Below are positions 1 to 5,329 of a DNA stretch of 5,329 bases, piece by piece. Position numbers and translations under genes: made by a program. Source of the DNA: a virus (Duplodnaviria > Heunggongvirae > Uroviricota > Caudoviricetes); IMG/VR virus record IMGVR_UViG_2534682252_000027, positions 1 to 5,329 of that record; one strand, written 5' to 3'. Numbering within the stretch: the stretch's first letter is position 1; the number at the start of each line of letters is the position of its first letter. The notes under the pieces were generated by a model. That model saw only the letters and a program-made list of their open reading frames with translations, was not told the DNA's origin and searched no databases.

Positions 1-200
1 GCCTTACGCCGGTCTTCTTTAATCTTGAAATACAGGTTCGTCAGATATGTCAGCAGCCCAAACAGCAGACTCCCCAGCACGCCTATTGCCGCCCACTGAG
101 ACGGGGAAACCCTGTCCAGCAACTGCAGGAACCAGTAGCCCGTTCCCACCGCTGACGTGGTGTATGACACACCTGTTGTGATTTTTTCCATCTGGTACAT
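1..200 (-). CDS. S: Class II holin (pinholin) S, S21/933W-like; start present, 3' end runs off the window
   Basis: Minus-strand translation from ATG at 198-200 gives [66 protein letters not shown]..., with two hydrophobic segments and the [13 protein letters not shown] motif I recall from phage 21 S21 / 933W S. Second in-frame ATG at 189-191 (dual-start pattern). GGAG Shine-Dalgarno in GGGAGACGGGGT just upstream. The track ORF 19..216 is a different frame of the same DNA. Confidence 0.85.
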
Positions 201-234
201 ACCCCGTCTCCCGCAATCCGGAAGCTCACAACAT

Positions 235-265
235 GAAAAAGGCCAGCAGCTGTTTACTGATGGCC
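235..265 (-). terminator. Putative intrinsic terminator between the 90-aa ORF and the holin gene
   Basis: Minus-strand RNA GGCCAUCAG-UAAACAG-CUGCUGGCC (9-bp stem with one mismatch, 7-nt loop) followed by UUUUUC. On the plus strand the same hairpin has no downstream T-run. Confidence 0.45.
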
Positions 266-276
266 CTGACTCCCCG

Positions 277-549
277 TTACAGCATCATGACCGATTCGGG
301 TTGAGGTTCAGTCGCATCGGCGACCGGTGATTCAGGCTGAACTTCACCGCTCTCTGCGGTGGTATCTCCCGCTTCAGTCGGTGGCTCTGCCTGTACACCA
401 AGCAGTTCATCCAGAATGGCATCCACTTCTGCATCAAGACGCGCTTCCAGGTTATGGCGAAGTTTCTGTTTCAGTGCGCTCCGGACTTCTTCAGAGCGCA
501 GGACGTCCTTCACTGCCTCTGCAGTGACCAGGGATGTAATTTCTGACAT
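277..549 (-). CDS. Hypothetical 90-aa acidic protein ([30 protein letters not shown]..., Glu/Asp/Pro-rich C-terminus)
   Basis: ATG at 547-549, stop TAA at 277-279. Protein-like composition with a predicted amphipathic helical N-terminal half and an acidic tail, and E. coli-like codon choice (CTG, GAA). The track's longer 148-aa version (GTG at 721-723) adds an Arg/Pro/Ser/Gly-rich N-terminus that looks like out-of-frame translation. Only a weak SD (GAGAAAA). Confidence 0.5.
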
Positions 550-589
550 GGGATTTTCTCGTCGAAAGGTGTGATTAAGAAAGTTGCCG

Positions 590-769
590 CTAAATGAGCG
601 GCTCTTCGGGTTTGCTTCCGGCTGACTGACTGGCGCTGATTTTCTCAGCGGCCCTTTTGTCAATCTGTCTGCGCCAGAAGTCACGCATGGCCCTGTACCC
701 ACCCGAAAGGAGATACAGCACACAGACCACCGTACAGAAGTACAGCATTAACTGGTTCAGAAATGTCAT
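590..769 (-). CDS. Hypothetical 59-aa small membrane protein (MTFLNQLMLYFCTVVCVLYLLSGGYRAMRDFWRRQIDKRAAEKISASQSAGSKPEEPLI)
   Basis: ATG at 767-769 preceded by GGAAAG (ACGGAAAGAAATTATG); stop TAG at 590-592. One hydrophobic helix followed by a basic then acidic tail. Below the 60-aa cutoff of the ORF track, so found by hand translation. It overlaps the implausible N-terminal extension of ORF 277..723 in another frame. Confidence 0.4.
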   Translation of the reverse strand: MTFLNQLMLYFCTVVCVLYLLSGGYRAMRDFWRRQIDKRAAEKISASQSAGSKPEEPLI

Positions 770-866
770 AATTTCTTTCCGTTATTGTTGACAATAAGAA
801 CTGTTTTCATTAAAAACCAGAGTACGAAAGTATCGTTCCTTTATTTTTTCTCCATAGGTATCACCA

Positions 867-902
867 CCGCCAGCGTCCATTCCTGTCGCTGGCGGTTTTT
901 TT
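867..902 (+). terminator. Strong plus-strand rho-independent terminator abutting the nanS-p stop codon
   Basis: CCGCCAGCG (867-875) / loop tccattcctgt / CGCTGGCGG (887-895), a 9-bp GC-rich stem followed by seven T (896-902). On the minus strand the hairpin is preceded by A7 and followed by UGGUGAUACC, so it is not a good minus-strand terminator. Confidence 0.55.
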
Positions 903-903
903 A

Positions 904-2841
904 TCATGCCGCAGTGTCTGTGCTGTTCACTTCCACCGCAATGCTGTCTATCAGTACCGGGTAAGTCGCACCTCTGGTAATGTCTGTCACATGCAGTTTA
1001 TCCGCCGCAAAGGCACTGACCGGTGACTGCGTCAGCGTGAACGGTGTGCCATCCTGACCATCAATAACCGGCGTCACCTGCAGGCTGTTATTCCCGGCAA
1101 AGCGGAAAGCCAGCGTATGCCATTCGTTATCAAATGCGCCAAAGGTTCCCAGTTTCAGGTTGTTTGTCGCCACTTTCGCATTGTGGTACATCACATTCAG
1201 GTCTTTTGCATCTGTCTGGATGTAGAACGCTGCCAGCAGGTTATTCCCCCCGTCTCCGGTCAGGGCAACGCCCTGTGGCAGTGAAGATACCGGCCAGTAA
1301 AACGCCATAACATACTGGTTCGCAGCCAGCGCTCCCGAAACCTTAAAGCGGCAGCGAATCTGCCCCCCTTTCTGTAACAGAGCCGCACCGTTGCCCGCGG
1401 CGTACTCCAGCACCCAGCTGCTTTTACCGGCTTCCTTGGTCAGCTTCACTGCCTTACCTCCGGTTCCCTCCGCATCGCTGACCACTTCTGCCCTGCCGCC
1501 ACTGGCTGACCATCCCTGTACTTTCAGGCTTCCCTCTGACTCGCTGGCAAGGTAAGAGAGCAGTGTTGTGACGCCTGTGGCTTCTGCACCGGAAGGCGAT
1601 GACGGGCGCACCTCTGATACTGTCGATGATGCCCCCGCGTTTAGCGCCACTCTTCCCGCATGGCGCAAAATCGCCGTTGCCAGACGGTCGGAAATAATCC
1701 CGCGGCGAGCCCATGAACTGAAATGGCTCGCCCTGTCCTGTGACGTCCAGGTGGCTGAGCTGTCACGCCATTTCGAACCGTAATATCCGATACCCGGAAT
1801 GTCCGGGTCTTCTTCCGGTTTGTTCGTCGGCACATTCACCCCGTTCTCATCCGTCATGAACGGTACGAAATGGATATTCTTTTCCGTTTTGTTTTTATAG
1901 CTGCCATACACCGTCTGGTACGTGGATTCGTTCTTCTGCTTCCAGAAATACGTCGTGTCCCCGCATATCCAGGGAACACCGCCAGCAGAGCCACCGACGC
2001 ACTGGCCTGCCATATCCGCCAGGTCTGCACGGAATTTATCAACCAGCGCACCAAACTGTGCGGCGTGATTTACCGGCGTACCGCCAAAATCAAATTCCCC
2101 CTGCATCCACACCACGGCAAACAGCACATTTTTCGGATTCTTCTTCAGTGCTGCTTTTGTTCGACCGATAAGGTCCTTATACAGCGGCTTGTCCACACCC
2201 CAGCGGGTTGAATTCTCCGAGGCACCACTCGCGTCACTGTATGTGCCATCGGCTCCGGTGGTGAACGCTGAACCACCACGACAGCACGGAACCAGCAGAA
2301 TGCCCGCATTCGCCGGTATAAACGGCAGCAGTTTTTTGGCGATATGCAGCCCTTGCCCCACGGTTCCGTACTGCCCCTTTGACAGGTCCGCTTTCGGATG
2401 GTTAAGGCGGCTCATGTCCTGCACATCATGCAGACAATGGTCCGCCGGAATGATGTCGTTATATTTACAGGCGACACCGCCCGGTGTCACCGTACTGCGA
2501 CGCGCTAACTGTTTAATACGTGGATCAGGGCTGTCGAATGTATCCGGCAATGGCAGTCCCTCACCGTATGACATACCATTGGACTGACCAGCAAGCGCGA
2601 TCACATAGTAATATTCTGGCGCAACAGAAGGCGCTGAGGTCGTCGGACGGTTGCCTGGCTCCTCTGGTGATGAGATGCTCCCCTCACTCACAACTGGCTG
2701 GATGAACTCCGCACCATAACCAGCTGTCGAAATCAGCGCACTACCATAAGGCTGCCACCCTTCCTTCAGTTTTTGAGTTATTCGTTTCGCAAGGTCTGAC
2801 GGCGACGCCGCCCTGACAACATCATAGTGTTTAAATGCCAT
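904..2841 (-). CDS. nanS: Prophage-encoded sialate (9-O-acetyl-N-acetylneuraminic acid) O-acetylesterase, NanS-p type; N-terminal DUF1737-like region + SASA/SGNH esterase domain + C-terminal domain
   Basis: 645-aa ORF with ATG at 2839-2841 preceded by GGGAGGA; double stop TGATAA. N-terminus MAFKHYDVVRAASPSDLAKRITQKLKEGWQPYG and esterase motif YYYVIALAGQSNGMSYG (catalytic Ser in GQSN) match my recollection of the 645-aa NanS-p proteins found downstream of stx in Stx phages such as 933W. Position upstream of the lysis cassette is the same. Confidence 0.9.
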   Translation of the reverse strand: MAFKHYDVVRAASPSDLAKRITQKLKEGWQPYGSALISTAGYGAEFIQPVVSEGSISSPEEPGNRPTTSAPSVAPEYYYVIALAGQSNGMSYGEGLPLPDTFDSPDPRIKQLARRSTVTPGGVACKYNDIIPADHCLHDVQDMSRLNHPKADLSKGQYGTVGQGLHIAKKLLPFIPANAGILLVPCCRGGSAFTTGADGTYSDASGASENSTRWGVDKPLYKDLIGRTKAALKKNPKNVLFAVVWMQGEFDFGGTPVNHAAQFGALVDKFRADLADMAGQCVGGSAGGVPWICGDTTYFWKQKNESTYQTVYGSYKNKTEKNIHFVPFMTDENGVNVPTNKPEEDPDIPGIGYYGSKWRDSSATWTSQDRASHFSSWARRGIISDRLATAILRHAGRVALNAGASSTVSEVRPSSPSGAEATGVTTLLSYLASESEGSLKVQGWSASGGRAEVVSDAEGTGGKAVKLTKEAGKSSWVLEYAAGNGAALLQKGGQIRCRFKVSGALAANQYVMAFYWPVSSLPQGVALTGDGGNNLLAAFYIQTDAKDLNVMYHNAKVATNNLKLGTFGAFDNEWHTLAFRFAGNNSLQVTPVIDGQDGTPFTLTQSPVSAFAADKLHVTDITRGATYPVLIDSIAVEVNSTDTAA

Positions 2842-3034
2842 GAATCCTCCCGGCCGGGATAATATTGTGAGTAAAATAAGGAGCGGGCTGAAGTCCGGAA
2901 GTTACAGGACAATGGCAGAAGGGAGACTACAGCCCGCAATTCGAAAAAGGTCGCGCAGTTGCGCAGAGTGATTACTATAGGGTATTATTCGCCAGCTGAA
3001 ATATTACTTCACGTTTCATTGTTTATTCCTTGCC

Positions 3035-3062
3035 GCCCGCGTCTCCCAGCGCGGGCTTTTTT
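3035..3062 (+). terminator. Plus-strand rho-independent terminator
   Basis: GCCCGCG (3035-3041) / loop tctcccag / CGCGGGC (3050-3056), a 7-bp all-GC stem followed by TTTTTT (3057-3062). No U-run follows it on the minus strand. Confidence 0.55.
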
Positions 3063-3066
3063 GTCC

Positions 3067-3093
3067 ATAAGAAAGCCCCTCCGGAGAGGGGCT
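3067..3093 (-). terminator. Minus-strand intrinsic terminator, convergent with the 3035-3062 terminator
   Basis: Minus-strand RNA AGCCCCUC-UCCG-GAGGGGCU (8-bp stem, 4-nt loop; plus coordinates 3074-3093) followed by UUCUUAU (3067-3073). Confidence 0.45.
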
Positions 3094-3510
3094 GGAGAGT
3101 GGCGCTATGTGCCATTGCATGGTGCCGGGTGCCTCCCGGTGAATTCAGTATCAGCACCTGAATCCGCGATTATCACATATACCTGGTTGCTGATTGCCCC
3201 TCCGCACAGGGGGATTCACCATGCAGTAGTATTTTTAATAAACAGTAAACAAAAAAATCAAGCATTATGCAGGCTGTTTCTTTTTATCACCGGCCACAGC
3301 AATACCACAATGCCGCAGACCAGAGCGCCATCAGTCAGTACCAACATTATCCTGCTGGTGAAATCCATCATCACCATCACTAAAAGCAGGATCACAACAG
3401 CAAGCAGACACAGTTTATAAAACAATGTTCAGAAAACGCATTCAGCATGCCTAAGGTTCTATTCCTACGAATAGCCAACTTGCAACTTAAAATATTATTT
3501 ATGCAGCCAA

Positions 3511-4269
3511 TTAAATTCTGGTCCTTACAATATCAACCTGAAGATTCTTATCTTGTGCTGATTGATAAATCACAAACCTTTTACTACCTGCATTGAAAGA
3601 AGTAGACAAAACCAGACAATTATCATAACGAGCAAGAACATAATACCAACCATCATTATAATTAATCATTTCATATTCTTTCTTAAACTGTGGTTTGTAA
3701 TATCCTGTCAGAAATGAAAAAAGCCAGAAATATGCCACAAAAGCAATCATCACAATCTCAAAAAAATGCTTTTTTATAAATGGCTTATCATAGAAGCATG
3801 ATACCGATAAAAATCGCCCATAAGATCTTATCGAAGTTGTAACCGCCAGCGCAATCGCTGCTGACAGTAGCAAAAGAGGTACCTGAATCTTCTGTCTCAA
3901 TATAGAAAACTCAATAATTGCCGGCACAAACAATAATTCCACAGCAAAATAAAGGCGAAATACATTTAGCTCTTGCATAGAATGTTTTCTTTTCACTGCG
4001 AAAAAGAATACAACACCAATACCCCAACCGATAAGAAATATAGCAATGACGATAACTGCAAAAAATAAACTTCTGGCAACATCATCAACACCTGCACCTA
4101 CAATCCACCATGGGAAGCCGTAGTAAAAAGAAGTACCCCATCCATAGAAATAAGCACTCCCCCATCCAAGGCATCCCATGTAGGCAATAAAAAGTGAAGA
4201 ACTCCTGAGCAGCGCACCATCCTTCATAACCACCCCAATACAAGATGATAACATTGGCTTACAACTCAT
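3511..4269 (-). CDS. Hypothetical AT-rich polytopic inner-membrane protein (~5 predicted TM helices + ~60-aa hydrophilic C-terminal tail); family not recognised; cargo (moron) gene in the Q-to-lysis slot
   Basis: Longest ORF is 252 aa from ATG 4267-4269, which has no SD. The in-frame ATG at 4225-4227 (Met15) follows GGGGTGG and is the more likely start (238 aa). Hydrophobic stretches: LFIAYMGCLGWG, LFFAVIVIAIFLIGWGIGVVFFFAV, VFRLYFAVELLFVPAIIEFSIL, VPLLLLSAAIALAVTTSI, FFEIVMIAFVAYFWLFSFLTG. Hand-counted 60-nt samples are about 32-33% G+C, against about 47-65% in nanS-p samples. It lies immediately downstream of the lambda-like late promoter. Confidence 0.75.
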   Translation of the reverse strand: MSCKPMLSSCIGVVMKDGALLRSSSLFIAYMGCLGWGSAYFYGWGTSFYYGFPWWIVGAGVDDVARSLFFAVIVIAIFLIGWGIGVVFFFAVKRKHSMQELNVFRLYFAVELLFVPAIIEFSILRQKIQVPLLLLSAAIALAVTTSIRSYGRFLSVSCFYDKPFIKKHFFEIVMIAFVAYFWLFSFLTGYYKPQFKKEYEMINYNDGWYYVLARYDNCLVLSTSFNAGSKRFVIYQSAQDKNLQVDIVRTRI

Positions 4270-4429
4270 AACAAAAGCAATTCAATGCCGTCAAGAGGTT
4301 ACAGGCTAAAAAAACTCTATTACATTGCAGTCAGCATGTTTACTACACAAATACAATTCAGAGCATAAAAACTACTCGGCGGCAGGTTATTGAGACTCAT
4401 CAATGACATGTAAAAAACGCCCATTATTG

Positions 4430-4470
4430 GTGTCAAGTTTCCCCAAAGTTATTCAAAAAGTCAATATTAT
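4430..4470 (-). promoter_or_regulatory. Lambda-like late promoter pR' with presumed Q-utilisation (qut) region
   Basis: Minus strand TTGACT (4459-4464) - 17 bp TTTTGAATAACTTTGGG - GAAACT (4436-4441) - TGACACCAATAATGGG. This aligns with lambda pR' as I recall it (TTGACT TATTGAATAAAATTGGG TAAATT TGACTCAACGATGGG). It sits about 45 bp after the Q stop, as in lambda. The -10 hexamer is diverged. Confidence 0.5.
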
Positions 4471-4506
4471 GCCGTTAATATGTTGCCATCCGTGGCAATC
4501 ATGGCG

Positions 4507-5130
4507 CTAACGTGTGATCGCATTCAAAATGTTGTCTGCGATTGACTCTTCCTTGTGGCATTGCACAACCAGAGCGTCATACAGCGGCTTAACAGTGCGT
4601 GACCAGGTGGGTTGGGTAAGGTTTGGGATTAGCATCGTCACAGCGCGATATGCGGCGCTTGCTGGCATTCTTGAATAACCGACGCCTTTACATCTTCCGC
4701 ACTCTTTCTCAGCAACTATCCCCCACTGCTCTGTTTTGGCTATATCAACCGCACGGCCTGTACCGTGGCAATCTCTGCATCTTGCGCCCGGCGTAGCGGC
4801 ACTACGGCAATAATCCGCATAAGCGAATGTTGCGAGCACTTGCAGTACCTTTGCCTTAGTATTTCCTTCAAGCTTTGCCACGCCACGGTATTTCCCCGAT
4901 ACCTTGTGTGCAAATTGCATCAGATAGTTGATAGCCTTTTGTTTGTCGTTCTGGCTTAGTTCATGCTTACCGCAGAATGCAGCCATTCCGAATCCGGCTT
5001 GTGATTGCGCCATCCCCATAGCAGCCATCACATCAGTACCGGAAAGAGAGTCAGAAGCCGTGGCCCGTGGTGAGTCGCTCATCATCGGGCTTTTTGGCGA
5101 ATGAAATTTAGCTACGCTTTCGAGTCTCAT
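4507..5130 (-). CDS. Q: Late-gene antitermination protein Q (lambda-type)
   Basis: 207 aa, [44 protein letters not shown]...[12 protein letters not shown]...[21 protein letters not shown]...[13 protein letters not shown]. Near-identical over its full length to lambda Q as I recall it, including the Cys-rich zinc-binding motifs. ATG at 5128-5130, stop TAG at 4507-4509. Confidence 0.93.
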
Positions 5131-5329
5131 GCGCCTTCTCCCTGTACCTGAATCAATGTGAGGTTTCCGCAGAACACTGCGCCGGTATCTATATACATCT
5201 GGTTGGCAAATTTGAGTGGTTTCACTGCTGGCGTATGACCAAAGATGAACGTGTCCGCGCCTTTGATTTCTTTCACGATCCCGTCTTGTGAGTTGCTGAT
5301 TCGTTCGCGGTTCCAGATTACCTGCTGAT
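5127..5329 (-). CDS. ninI: Ser/Thr protein phosphatase, lambda NinI (orf221)-like; C-terminal fragment, 5' end outside the window
   Basis: Minus-strand frame ending at TGA 5127-5129 translates to ...[66 protein letters not shown]. The GHTP motif and the position immediately upstream of Q match the lambda nin region. Its stop overlaps the Q start in ATGA. Confidence 0.8.

Follow-up and report, generated by a model that had tools for sequence, protein, structure and literature searches.

Gene order and the facing terminators

The window, i.e. the whole stretch of DNA analysed here, comprises 5,329 nucleotides (positions 1 to 5,329 of IMG/VR virus record IMGVR_UViG_2534682252_000027). On the minus strand, its gene content is that of the late-regulatory region of a lambdoid, Stx-type prophage; late transcription is assigned to this strand because of the orientation of the antiterminator gene Q. 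The following features were located:

904-2841, minus strand: nanS-p-type esterase (DUF1737 + SASA + DUF6645; Pfam; phage annotation 'NanS')
2835-2863, plus strand: promoter-like site ATGCCA-17-GATAAT (promoter scan)
2871-2994, plus strand: candidate 5' extension of a longer sRNA isoform, antisense to the nanS-p 5' UTR (promoter-like site, homologue size)
2959-2988, plus strand: conserved sigma-70-type promoter (-35 TTGCGC at 2959-2964, 18-bp spacer, -10 TATTAT at 2983-2988)
2995-3062, plus strand: core (short form, ~68 nt) of an EcOnc08/21/42-type Hfq-binding sRNA (match to covariance model R1; 5' end predicted)
3028-3034, plus strand: seed CCUUGCC, single-stranded, directly 5' of the terminator
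3035-3062, plus strand: intrinsic terminator of the plus-strand sRNA (8-bp G+C-rich stem, 6-nt loop, T6)
3063-3066, no strand: spacer GTCC, 4 bp between the two transcript ends (read from the sequence)
3063-3250, minus strand: STnc100 sRNA gene (Rfam RF02076), same strand as the late PR' operon
3067-3093, minus strand: intrinsic terminator of STnc100 (8-bp stem, tetraloop, UUCUUAU tail)
3258-3425, minus strand: DUF3927 small membrane protein ORF (Pfam PF13064, E 1.4e-13; RefSeq annotation at homologous loci)
3511-4269, minus strand: cargo ('moron') ORF, 252 aa (no Pfam family)
4507-5130, minus strand: antiterminator Q (Pfam PF03589, E 1.2e-57)

Both terminators are located in a non-coding stretch of 416 bp between the DUF3927 and nanS-p genes. 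The product of the cargo ORF is hydrophobic and apparently a multi-pass membrane protein. EPEC PP2 and O157 prophages carry the same cargo gene, likewise flanked by Q and DUF3927, with the annotation 'hypothetical protein' (WP_001302581.1). The nanS-p gene is the 'conserved hypothetical phage ORF' bordering the sRNA pair; beyond it, toward the lysis genes, the ORFs for DUF1378 and DUF826 were identified (Pfam).

Positions 1-3148 of the window share 99.7% identity with Traversvirus phages induced from EHEC, and the remainder, to the right of 3148, matches EHEC and EPEC prophages. The end of the Stx-type/Traversvirus match at ~3148 is a mosaic joint within the STnc100 gene. A second mosaic joint lies at 3052-3066; O157 strains are near-identical to the window rightward from ~3067 and diverge leftward.

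The plus-strand hairpin is formed by the stem arms GCCCGCGT (3035-3042) and GCGCGGGC (3049-3056), with the loop CTCCCA (3043-3048) between them and T6 (3057-3062) behind them. The minus-strand hairpin includes the arms AGCCCCTC (3093-3086) and GAGGGGCT (3081-3074), the loop TCCG (3085-3082) and the tail UUCUUAU (3073-3067), which is an imperfect U-tract. The sequence-only reading of this DNA had described back-to-back terminators that face each other 4 bp apart, at 3035-3062 (+) and 3067-3093 (-); these coordinates and the GTCC spacer were read from the sequence as claimed. That reading had made its case depend on the stability of the stems, which was evident on folding: -16.9 kcal/mol for the plus-strand hairpin (z -3.4) and -18.0 kcal/mol for the minus-strand hairpin (z -3.1), with none of 200 shuffles equally stable in either case. 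In a scan of the window, the two hairpins were the strongest terminator-like sites, with 8 pairs each, 7 and 6 of them G-C. The total number of such sites was 12 vs 5.4 ± 2.5 in shuffles. Neither hairpin has a U-run on its opposite strand; therefore, each terminates in one direction only, and a single bidirectional terminator was rejected.

An additional sRNA-like element was observed on the anti-late strand at 827-904 (+). Its strong terminator, CCGCCAGCG...CGCTGGCGG followed by T7, abuts the nanS-p stop codon in convergent orientation, and the segment 820-905 folds at -24.7 kcal/mol (z -4.6). The element displays a weak match to Rfam Esr41 (28 bits vs a threshold of 102). Two EPEC sequences, the PasC region and the stop-proximal element of PP2, align to its terminator and tail. 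With this element at its stop codon, nanS-p is flanked on either side by plus-strand sRNA genes.

The two small RNAs

The search of the window against all Rfam families (cmscan) revealed one strong match, STnc100 (140.3 bits, E 5.8e-32, gathering score 47), which spans model positions 1-206 of 206. Its terminal helix coincides with the minus-strand hairpin; this terminator therefore belongs to an sRNA, a point missed by the sequence-only reading. The 188-nt STnc100 RNA folds at -69.8 kcal/mol (z -3.4). STnc100 is present at the same position in Sakai Sp4, Sakai Sp15 (176.7 bits), EPEC PP6, and O157 AC-5, and EcOnc05 of Sakai Sp4 is an STnc100 copy (138 bits). Among the STnc100 homologues in Sakai, EcOnc05 is an Hfq-bound RNA of ~222 nt and EcOnc27 has a size of ~235/247 nt (Tree et al., 2014; PMC4104026). 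A homologue was also detected by RT-PCR in STEC vesicles. The promoter scan identified no promoter for STnc100 in the window; on inspection, the sole candidate upstream of 3258 was a weak CATAAT whose -35 is poor. The RNA may be processed from the DUF3927 transcript instead of being made from its own promoter.

A common ancestor was proposed for STnc100 and PasD (Zhu, Shabalina and Storz, 2026), and PasD2 in EPEC PP2 shares the synteny of the window STnc100 downstream of Q, moron, and DUF3927. However, the PasD seed UGUGAG, known from RIL-seq targets, is absent from the minus-strand RNA of the window (3250-3063), and EPEC PasD2 falls below the STnc100 gathering score. On these two grounds of sequence, the minus-strand RNA belongs to STnc100 proper, not to PasD.

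The plus-strand RNA is, by homology, a member of the EcOnc08/21/42 (EPEC IGR sRNA) group. Namely, window positions 2842-3070 are ~93% identical, over 229 aligned nt, to the EPEC locus NC_011601 1444797-1444978(-), with an identical seed, the same terminator, strand, and neighbours; the two sequences differ by a single substitution in the terminator loop and by a few more within the 5' part. The identity to the Sakai Sp4 and Sp15 loci (A2, A3) is also ~93%. The EPEC E2348/69 RNA 'E2348C_1409.E2348C_1408.IGR', with the 3' end ...CCUUGCGCCCGCGUCUCCCUGCGCGGGCUUUUUUU, was reported in the supplement of Pearl Mizrahi et al. (2021; PMC8550237). It is encoded in prophage PP6 and listed as EPEC-unique, with EcOnc08, EcOnc21, and EcOnc42 as homologues (Table S6). 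Its RIL-seq chimeras include those with the cfa 5'UTR (767), the dppA 5'UTR (197), pcm (118), perA (30), tir (29), and espC (26), and also with emrA and a LEE gene; it invariably occupied the second position of the chimera, the usual pattern for Hfq sRNAs (PMC8550237). The heptamer CCUUGCC of the window, nearly invariant in the variant alignment, is identical to the seed of this homologue and complementary to its target motif GGCAAGG/GGCAGGG (PMC8550237). GGCARGG is not enriched in the window itself (4 sites vs 1.8 ± 1.5 expected), and one of these sites is the seed's own complement.

EcOnc08, EcOnc21, and EcOnc42 of E. coli O157 Sakai were identified by Hfq crosslinking (CRAC) and northern analysis (Tree et al., 2014, Table S2; PMC4104026). 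In Sakai Sp4, EcOnc05 (+, ~222 nt) faces EcOnc08 and EcOnc21 (-, ~271 nt) (PMC4104026), and this pair lies just upstream of ECs_1088, the nanS-p homologue. The Hfq peak of EcOnc08 (73 nt) aligns to window positions ~2989-3061 and that of EcOnc21 to ~2898-2983, both on the plus strand. The ECs_2972-stx1B interval of the Stx1 prophage Sp15 can be aligned to the window through both terminators and the spacer. EcOnc42, located 3' of toxin genes (Sy et al., 2020), is encoded on the plus strand of Sp15; its peak falls at window positions 2763-2845 or 2898-2980, the coordinates in Table S2 being those of an older Sakai version. The layout, i.e. antisense to PR', divergent from nanS-p/DUF6645, and convergent with STnc100, is the same in the window, EPEC PP6, Sakai Sp4, and Sp15.

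The family of the plus-strand sRNA has no Rfam model, and RefSeq contains no annotation of this sRNA. Among all Rfam families, the only plus-strand match in the window was anti-hemB at 3033-3093 (19 bits vs a threshold of 49.5, E 0.47), which was rejected as chance; it fits the two adjacent hairpins. PasB was also rejected as the identity of the plus-strand RNA, being encoded in the tail-gene region of EPEC PP6 with an unrelated sequence. The 225-bp stretch 2842-3066 was found in 1356 of 5426 complete E. coli genomes and is 100% identical in many O26, O103, O111, O145, and O157 genomes. In phage vB_EcoP_phi296 (PV189400.1; L128 5867-6162), two short plus-strand 'hypothetical protein' CDSs are annotated where the sRNA pair lies; they are probably spurious calls that cover the sRNA genes.

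The promoter of the plus-strand RNA was not flagged by a simple scan because its -35 box, TTGCGC, is weak and matches only three of six consensus positions. Its boxes, TTGCGC (or TTGCAA) and TATTAT, are conserved in loci with an upstream flank unrelated to nanS-p (L045, L093, L032), and homology across the variants, including these three, starts at the TTGCGC/TTGCAA box. The window promoter also aligns column for column with the AgvB promoter of O157 AC-5 (A5). The AgvB 5' end was mapped by RACE (Tree et al., 2014; PMC4104026), and the AgvB Rfam match in AC-5 starts 6 nt past the -10. By analogy, the window RNA is predicted to start near 2994-2996, most closely at about 2995, and to be ~68 nt long, which fits the 73-nt Hfq peak of EcOnc08. 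The published sizes of homologues are longer, namely 182 nt in EPEC (PMC8550237) and ~271 nt on Sakai northerns (PMC4104026), which speaks against a single 5' end at the predicted position. The promoter-like site ATGCCA-17-GATAAT could give a form of ~190 nt, and the EPEC size estimate of 182 nt places a 5' end at ~2882 in window coordinates. The candidate 5' extension, 2871-2994, is less conserved than the core. Within it, at 2880-2925 (+), the GGA motifs AAGGAG, CCGGAAG, CAGGACA, and AGGGAGA resemble CsrA-binding sites.

The anti-sRNAs AgvB and AsxR (RF02702/RF02703) share with the window RNA the slot and strand, the convergence with STnc100, and the promoter. O157:H7 AC-5 has near-identical copies of the window's cargo gene, DUF3927, and STnc100, and there AgvB occupies the slot of the window sRNA, abutting STnc100. 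The alignment with AC-5 thus places the window RNA in the antisense slot behind a TTGCGC...TA(A/T)(A/T)AT promoter, as in AgvB/AsxR. The body of the window RNA, however, is unlike theirs: it lacks the GcvB-mimic CACAACA and the 42-nt 3' domain conserved among the anti-sRNAs, and the published partners of its homologue are mRNAs, not a core sRNA. Membership in AgvB/AsxR was rejected, with no window match at E values up to 1 and a score of 96.5 bits for AgvB in AC-5 as the positive control. Another candidate for an antisense-slot RNA was observed in EPEC PP4. The RIL-seq hub 'E2348C_1013' (NC_011601 1060613-1060672, minus strand), with 537 chimeras with the nlpD IGR and 263 with the entC 5'UTR, lies just downstream of PasD1 and is convergent with it, and thus resembles a further sRNA of the antisense slot that was recorded as a CDS.

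Conservation and covariation of the junction

The comparison included 125 STnc100-bearing segments, i.e. 120 IMG/VR viral stretches with the STnc100 core, the annotated E. coli loci, and the window, which gave 31 distinct junction variants. Both hairpins are kept in all 31 despite differing stem sequences, and are therefore not chance structures. The stems include GCCCGCG, ACCGCTC, and GCCCGUA on one side and GCCCCUC, GGCUCCUC, and GGCCCCAC on the other; the folding energies range from -13.5 to -19.6 kcal/mol for the sense hairpin and from -10.4 to -16.9 kcal/mol for the antisense hairpin. The length of the spacer is similar in all variants. The partner opposite STnc100 was of EcOnc08 type in 42 segments and of AsxR/AgvB type in 22; the other class, 59 of the 125, had neither partner type or a disrupted STnc100.

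The covariance model R1, built on the ~69-nt core of the plus-strand sRNA, detected this RNA in 42 of 100 sources. The match in the window (2995-3063) scored 94.5 bits (E 1.6e-20), and those in the reference loci L003, L004, and L005 scored 95.7-100.3 bits. In the covariance-model alignment of 18 distinct sequences, the plus-strand terminator helix is 90.8% paired, and three of its eight pairs change on both sides. Its covariation score was 0.263 vs 0.125 ± 0.021 in shuffles, none of 500 reaching this value, and slid controls were far below it. A plain MAFFT/RNAalifold alignment of 14 variants placed the ACCGCTC...GAGCGGT stems one column off register and under-counted the pairs, which was corrected in the covariance-model alignment.

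One variant departs in the 5' arm. The plus-strand terminator of Sakai Sp15 (L004 ~9308-9336) carries a C-to-A change (GCCAGCG), which lowers the stability of the hairpin from about -16.7 to -10.5 kcal/mol. Termination of EcOnc42 may be leakier in Sp15 than that of the window copy.

Interpretation of the convergent pair

We consider it very likely that the junction consists of two separate sRNA genes, arranged tail to tail at the moron site downstream of Q/PR', with the hairpins as their Rho-independent terminators. In the present analysis, this reading draws on the hairpins and their stability, the covariation, Rfam membership, the homology to detected RNAs, and the conservation of promoter and seed; Hfq binding, northern sizes, and RIL-seq partners are taken from the cited papers. 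We infer that the pair is expressed in this prophage. The late-operon strand would give STnc100 (~190 nt, 3250-3063), and the opposite strand an EcOnc08/21/42-type sRNA from its own sigma-70 promoter, with a ~68-nt core and the seed adjoining the terminator. In the lysogen, each terminator would define the 3' end of its sRNA, and the hairpin with its U-tail would represent the usual Hfq-binding module. The minus-strand terminator would also halt cargo/DUF3927 transcripts unmodified by Q. After induction, Q-modified polymerase from PR' would presumably read through it into nanS-p and the lysis genes. Judging by the EPEC homologue, the plus-strand RNA may act in trans with Hfq on GGCAAGG-like mRNA sites such as those in the cfa and dppA 5' UTRs, pcm, and tir.

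This interpretation modifies several claims made from the sequence alone. The expectation that a plus-strand terminator implies antisense or small-RNA transcription was borne out, since homologous loci yield Hfq-bound RNAs on that strand. The alternative that it is a relic of a lost gene is contradicted by the conserved promoter, seed, and terminator of the plus-strand unit. The minus-strand terminator would indeed stop unmodified cargo transcripts, as proposed; primarily, however, it is the 3' end of the ~190-nt STnc100 sRNA, nor does it directly follow the cargo gene, because the DUF3927 ORF also lies between that gene and STnc100. The view of the pair as a module boundary agrees with the break in homology at ~3148 and with the presence of different RNAs, in different prophages, in the antisense slot left of the spacer.

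A simpler explanation would regard the hairpins as mere insulators, the minus-strand one being the cargo-gene terminator and the plus-strand one a lost-gene relic or an antisense guard, with no functional sRNAs. Both hairpins are good terminators located where inter-phage homology breaks, and the classical moron consists of promoter, gene, and terminator. Yet a full-length STnc100 match has the minus-strand hairpin as its terminal helix, the plus-strand unit retains its promoter, seed, and covarying terminator across diverged loci, and the homologues are Hfq-bound and form RIL-seq chimeras, which makes the absence of functional sRNAs highly improbable. We give even less credit to a small protein, e.g. 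the 43-aa ORF at 2840-2971, whose mRNA the plus-strand terminator would end. This 43-codon ORF starts with ATG, and a phage annotation pipeline called short CDSs here; its frame is nonetheless broken by single-base indels in homologues (A2, A11, A10/A15), the ATG is the reverse of the nanS-p start and lacks a preceding Shine-Dalgarno sequence, and the conserved part lies downstream of the ORF.

Some more weight, though still little, is due to the possibility that the plus-strand RNA acts mainly in cis, with trans targets being secondary. In this case, a long isoform of 182-271 nt, lying antisense to the 5' UTR and start of nanS-p, would pair with the Q-antiterminated late transcript and modulate the expression of nanS-p or lysis genes or the stability of the late transcript. 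The experimentally reported forms are the longer ones, 2842-3062 is perfectly complementary to any read-through late transcript, the promoter-like site at 2835-2863 overlaps the nanS-p start codon, and the second plus-strand sRNA-like element abuts the nanS-p stop codon. Against a primarily cis role, the conserved module begins at the internal promoter and is present where the upstream flank is unrelated to nanS-p, as in the three loci named above; the window and O157 AC-5 show little conservation in the 5' extension; and trans partners captured via the 3' seed are abundant in RIL-seq. We regard this reading as unlikely.

The arrangement of two separate, convergent sRNA genes agrees with published work. 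The PR' moron site was reported to have 'carried convergent sRNA genes', AsxR with EcOnc27 behind stx2B being one example, and the presence of related but non-identical sRNAs at the moron position was already remarked (Tree et al., 2014, Mol Cell 55:199; PMC4104026). [quoted passage not shown] Both Sakai Sp4 (EcOnc05 with EcOnc08/21) and Sp15 (EcOnc42) can be aligned to it base for base. It differs in that the moron is an uncharacterised 252-aa membrane ORF plus DUF3927, vs stx or tRNAs, which is nothing essential. The finding is thus a rediscovery of the published convergent-sRNA architecture, and both RNA families are already in the literature (2014, 2021, 2026).

A wider reading, which we offer only tentatively, is that the antisense slot is a cassette-exchange site, where recombination at conserved ends swaps sRNA bodies, and that, in addition, the Q-antiterminated nanS-p/lysis transcript is a cis target of the long isoform. 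The bodies of AgvB, AsxR, EcOnc03, and the EcOnc08-type RNA may be interchangeable units set between a constant promoter (TTGCGC-18-TATTAT or TAAAAT) and a constant terminator-spacer-terminator junction. The comparison with O157 AC-5, which shares the cargo gene, DUF3927, STnc100, and the promoter with the window and differs in the sRNA body, fits the cassette reading. If true, cassette exchange would uncouple the swapping of regulatory specificities by prophages from the cargo gene.

As a discovery, the convergent pair matters little because the architecture and both RNA families were already published, but it is of some value for annotation. The plus-strand sRNA has so far remained a gap in both RefSeq and Rfam, and the ~69-nt covariance model, which separates it cleanly from AgvB/AsxR, could seed an Rfam family. 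The conserved promoter predicts a short primary transcript beside the published forms of 182 and ~271 nt. In EPEC, prophage sRNAs contact virulence and core mRNAs (tir, perA, espC, cfa, and dppA); correct annotation of these RNAs is therefore useful for work on EHEC and EPEC.
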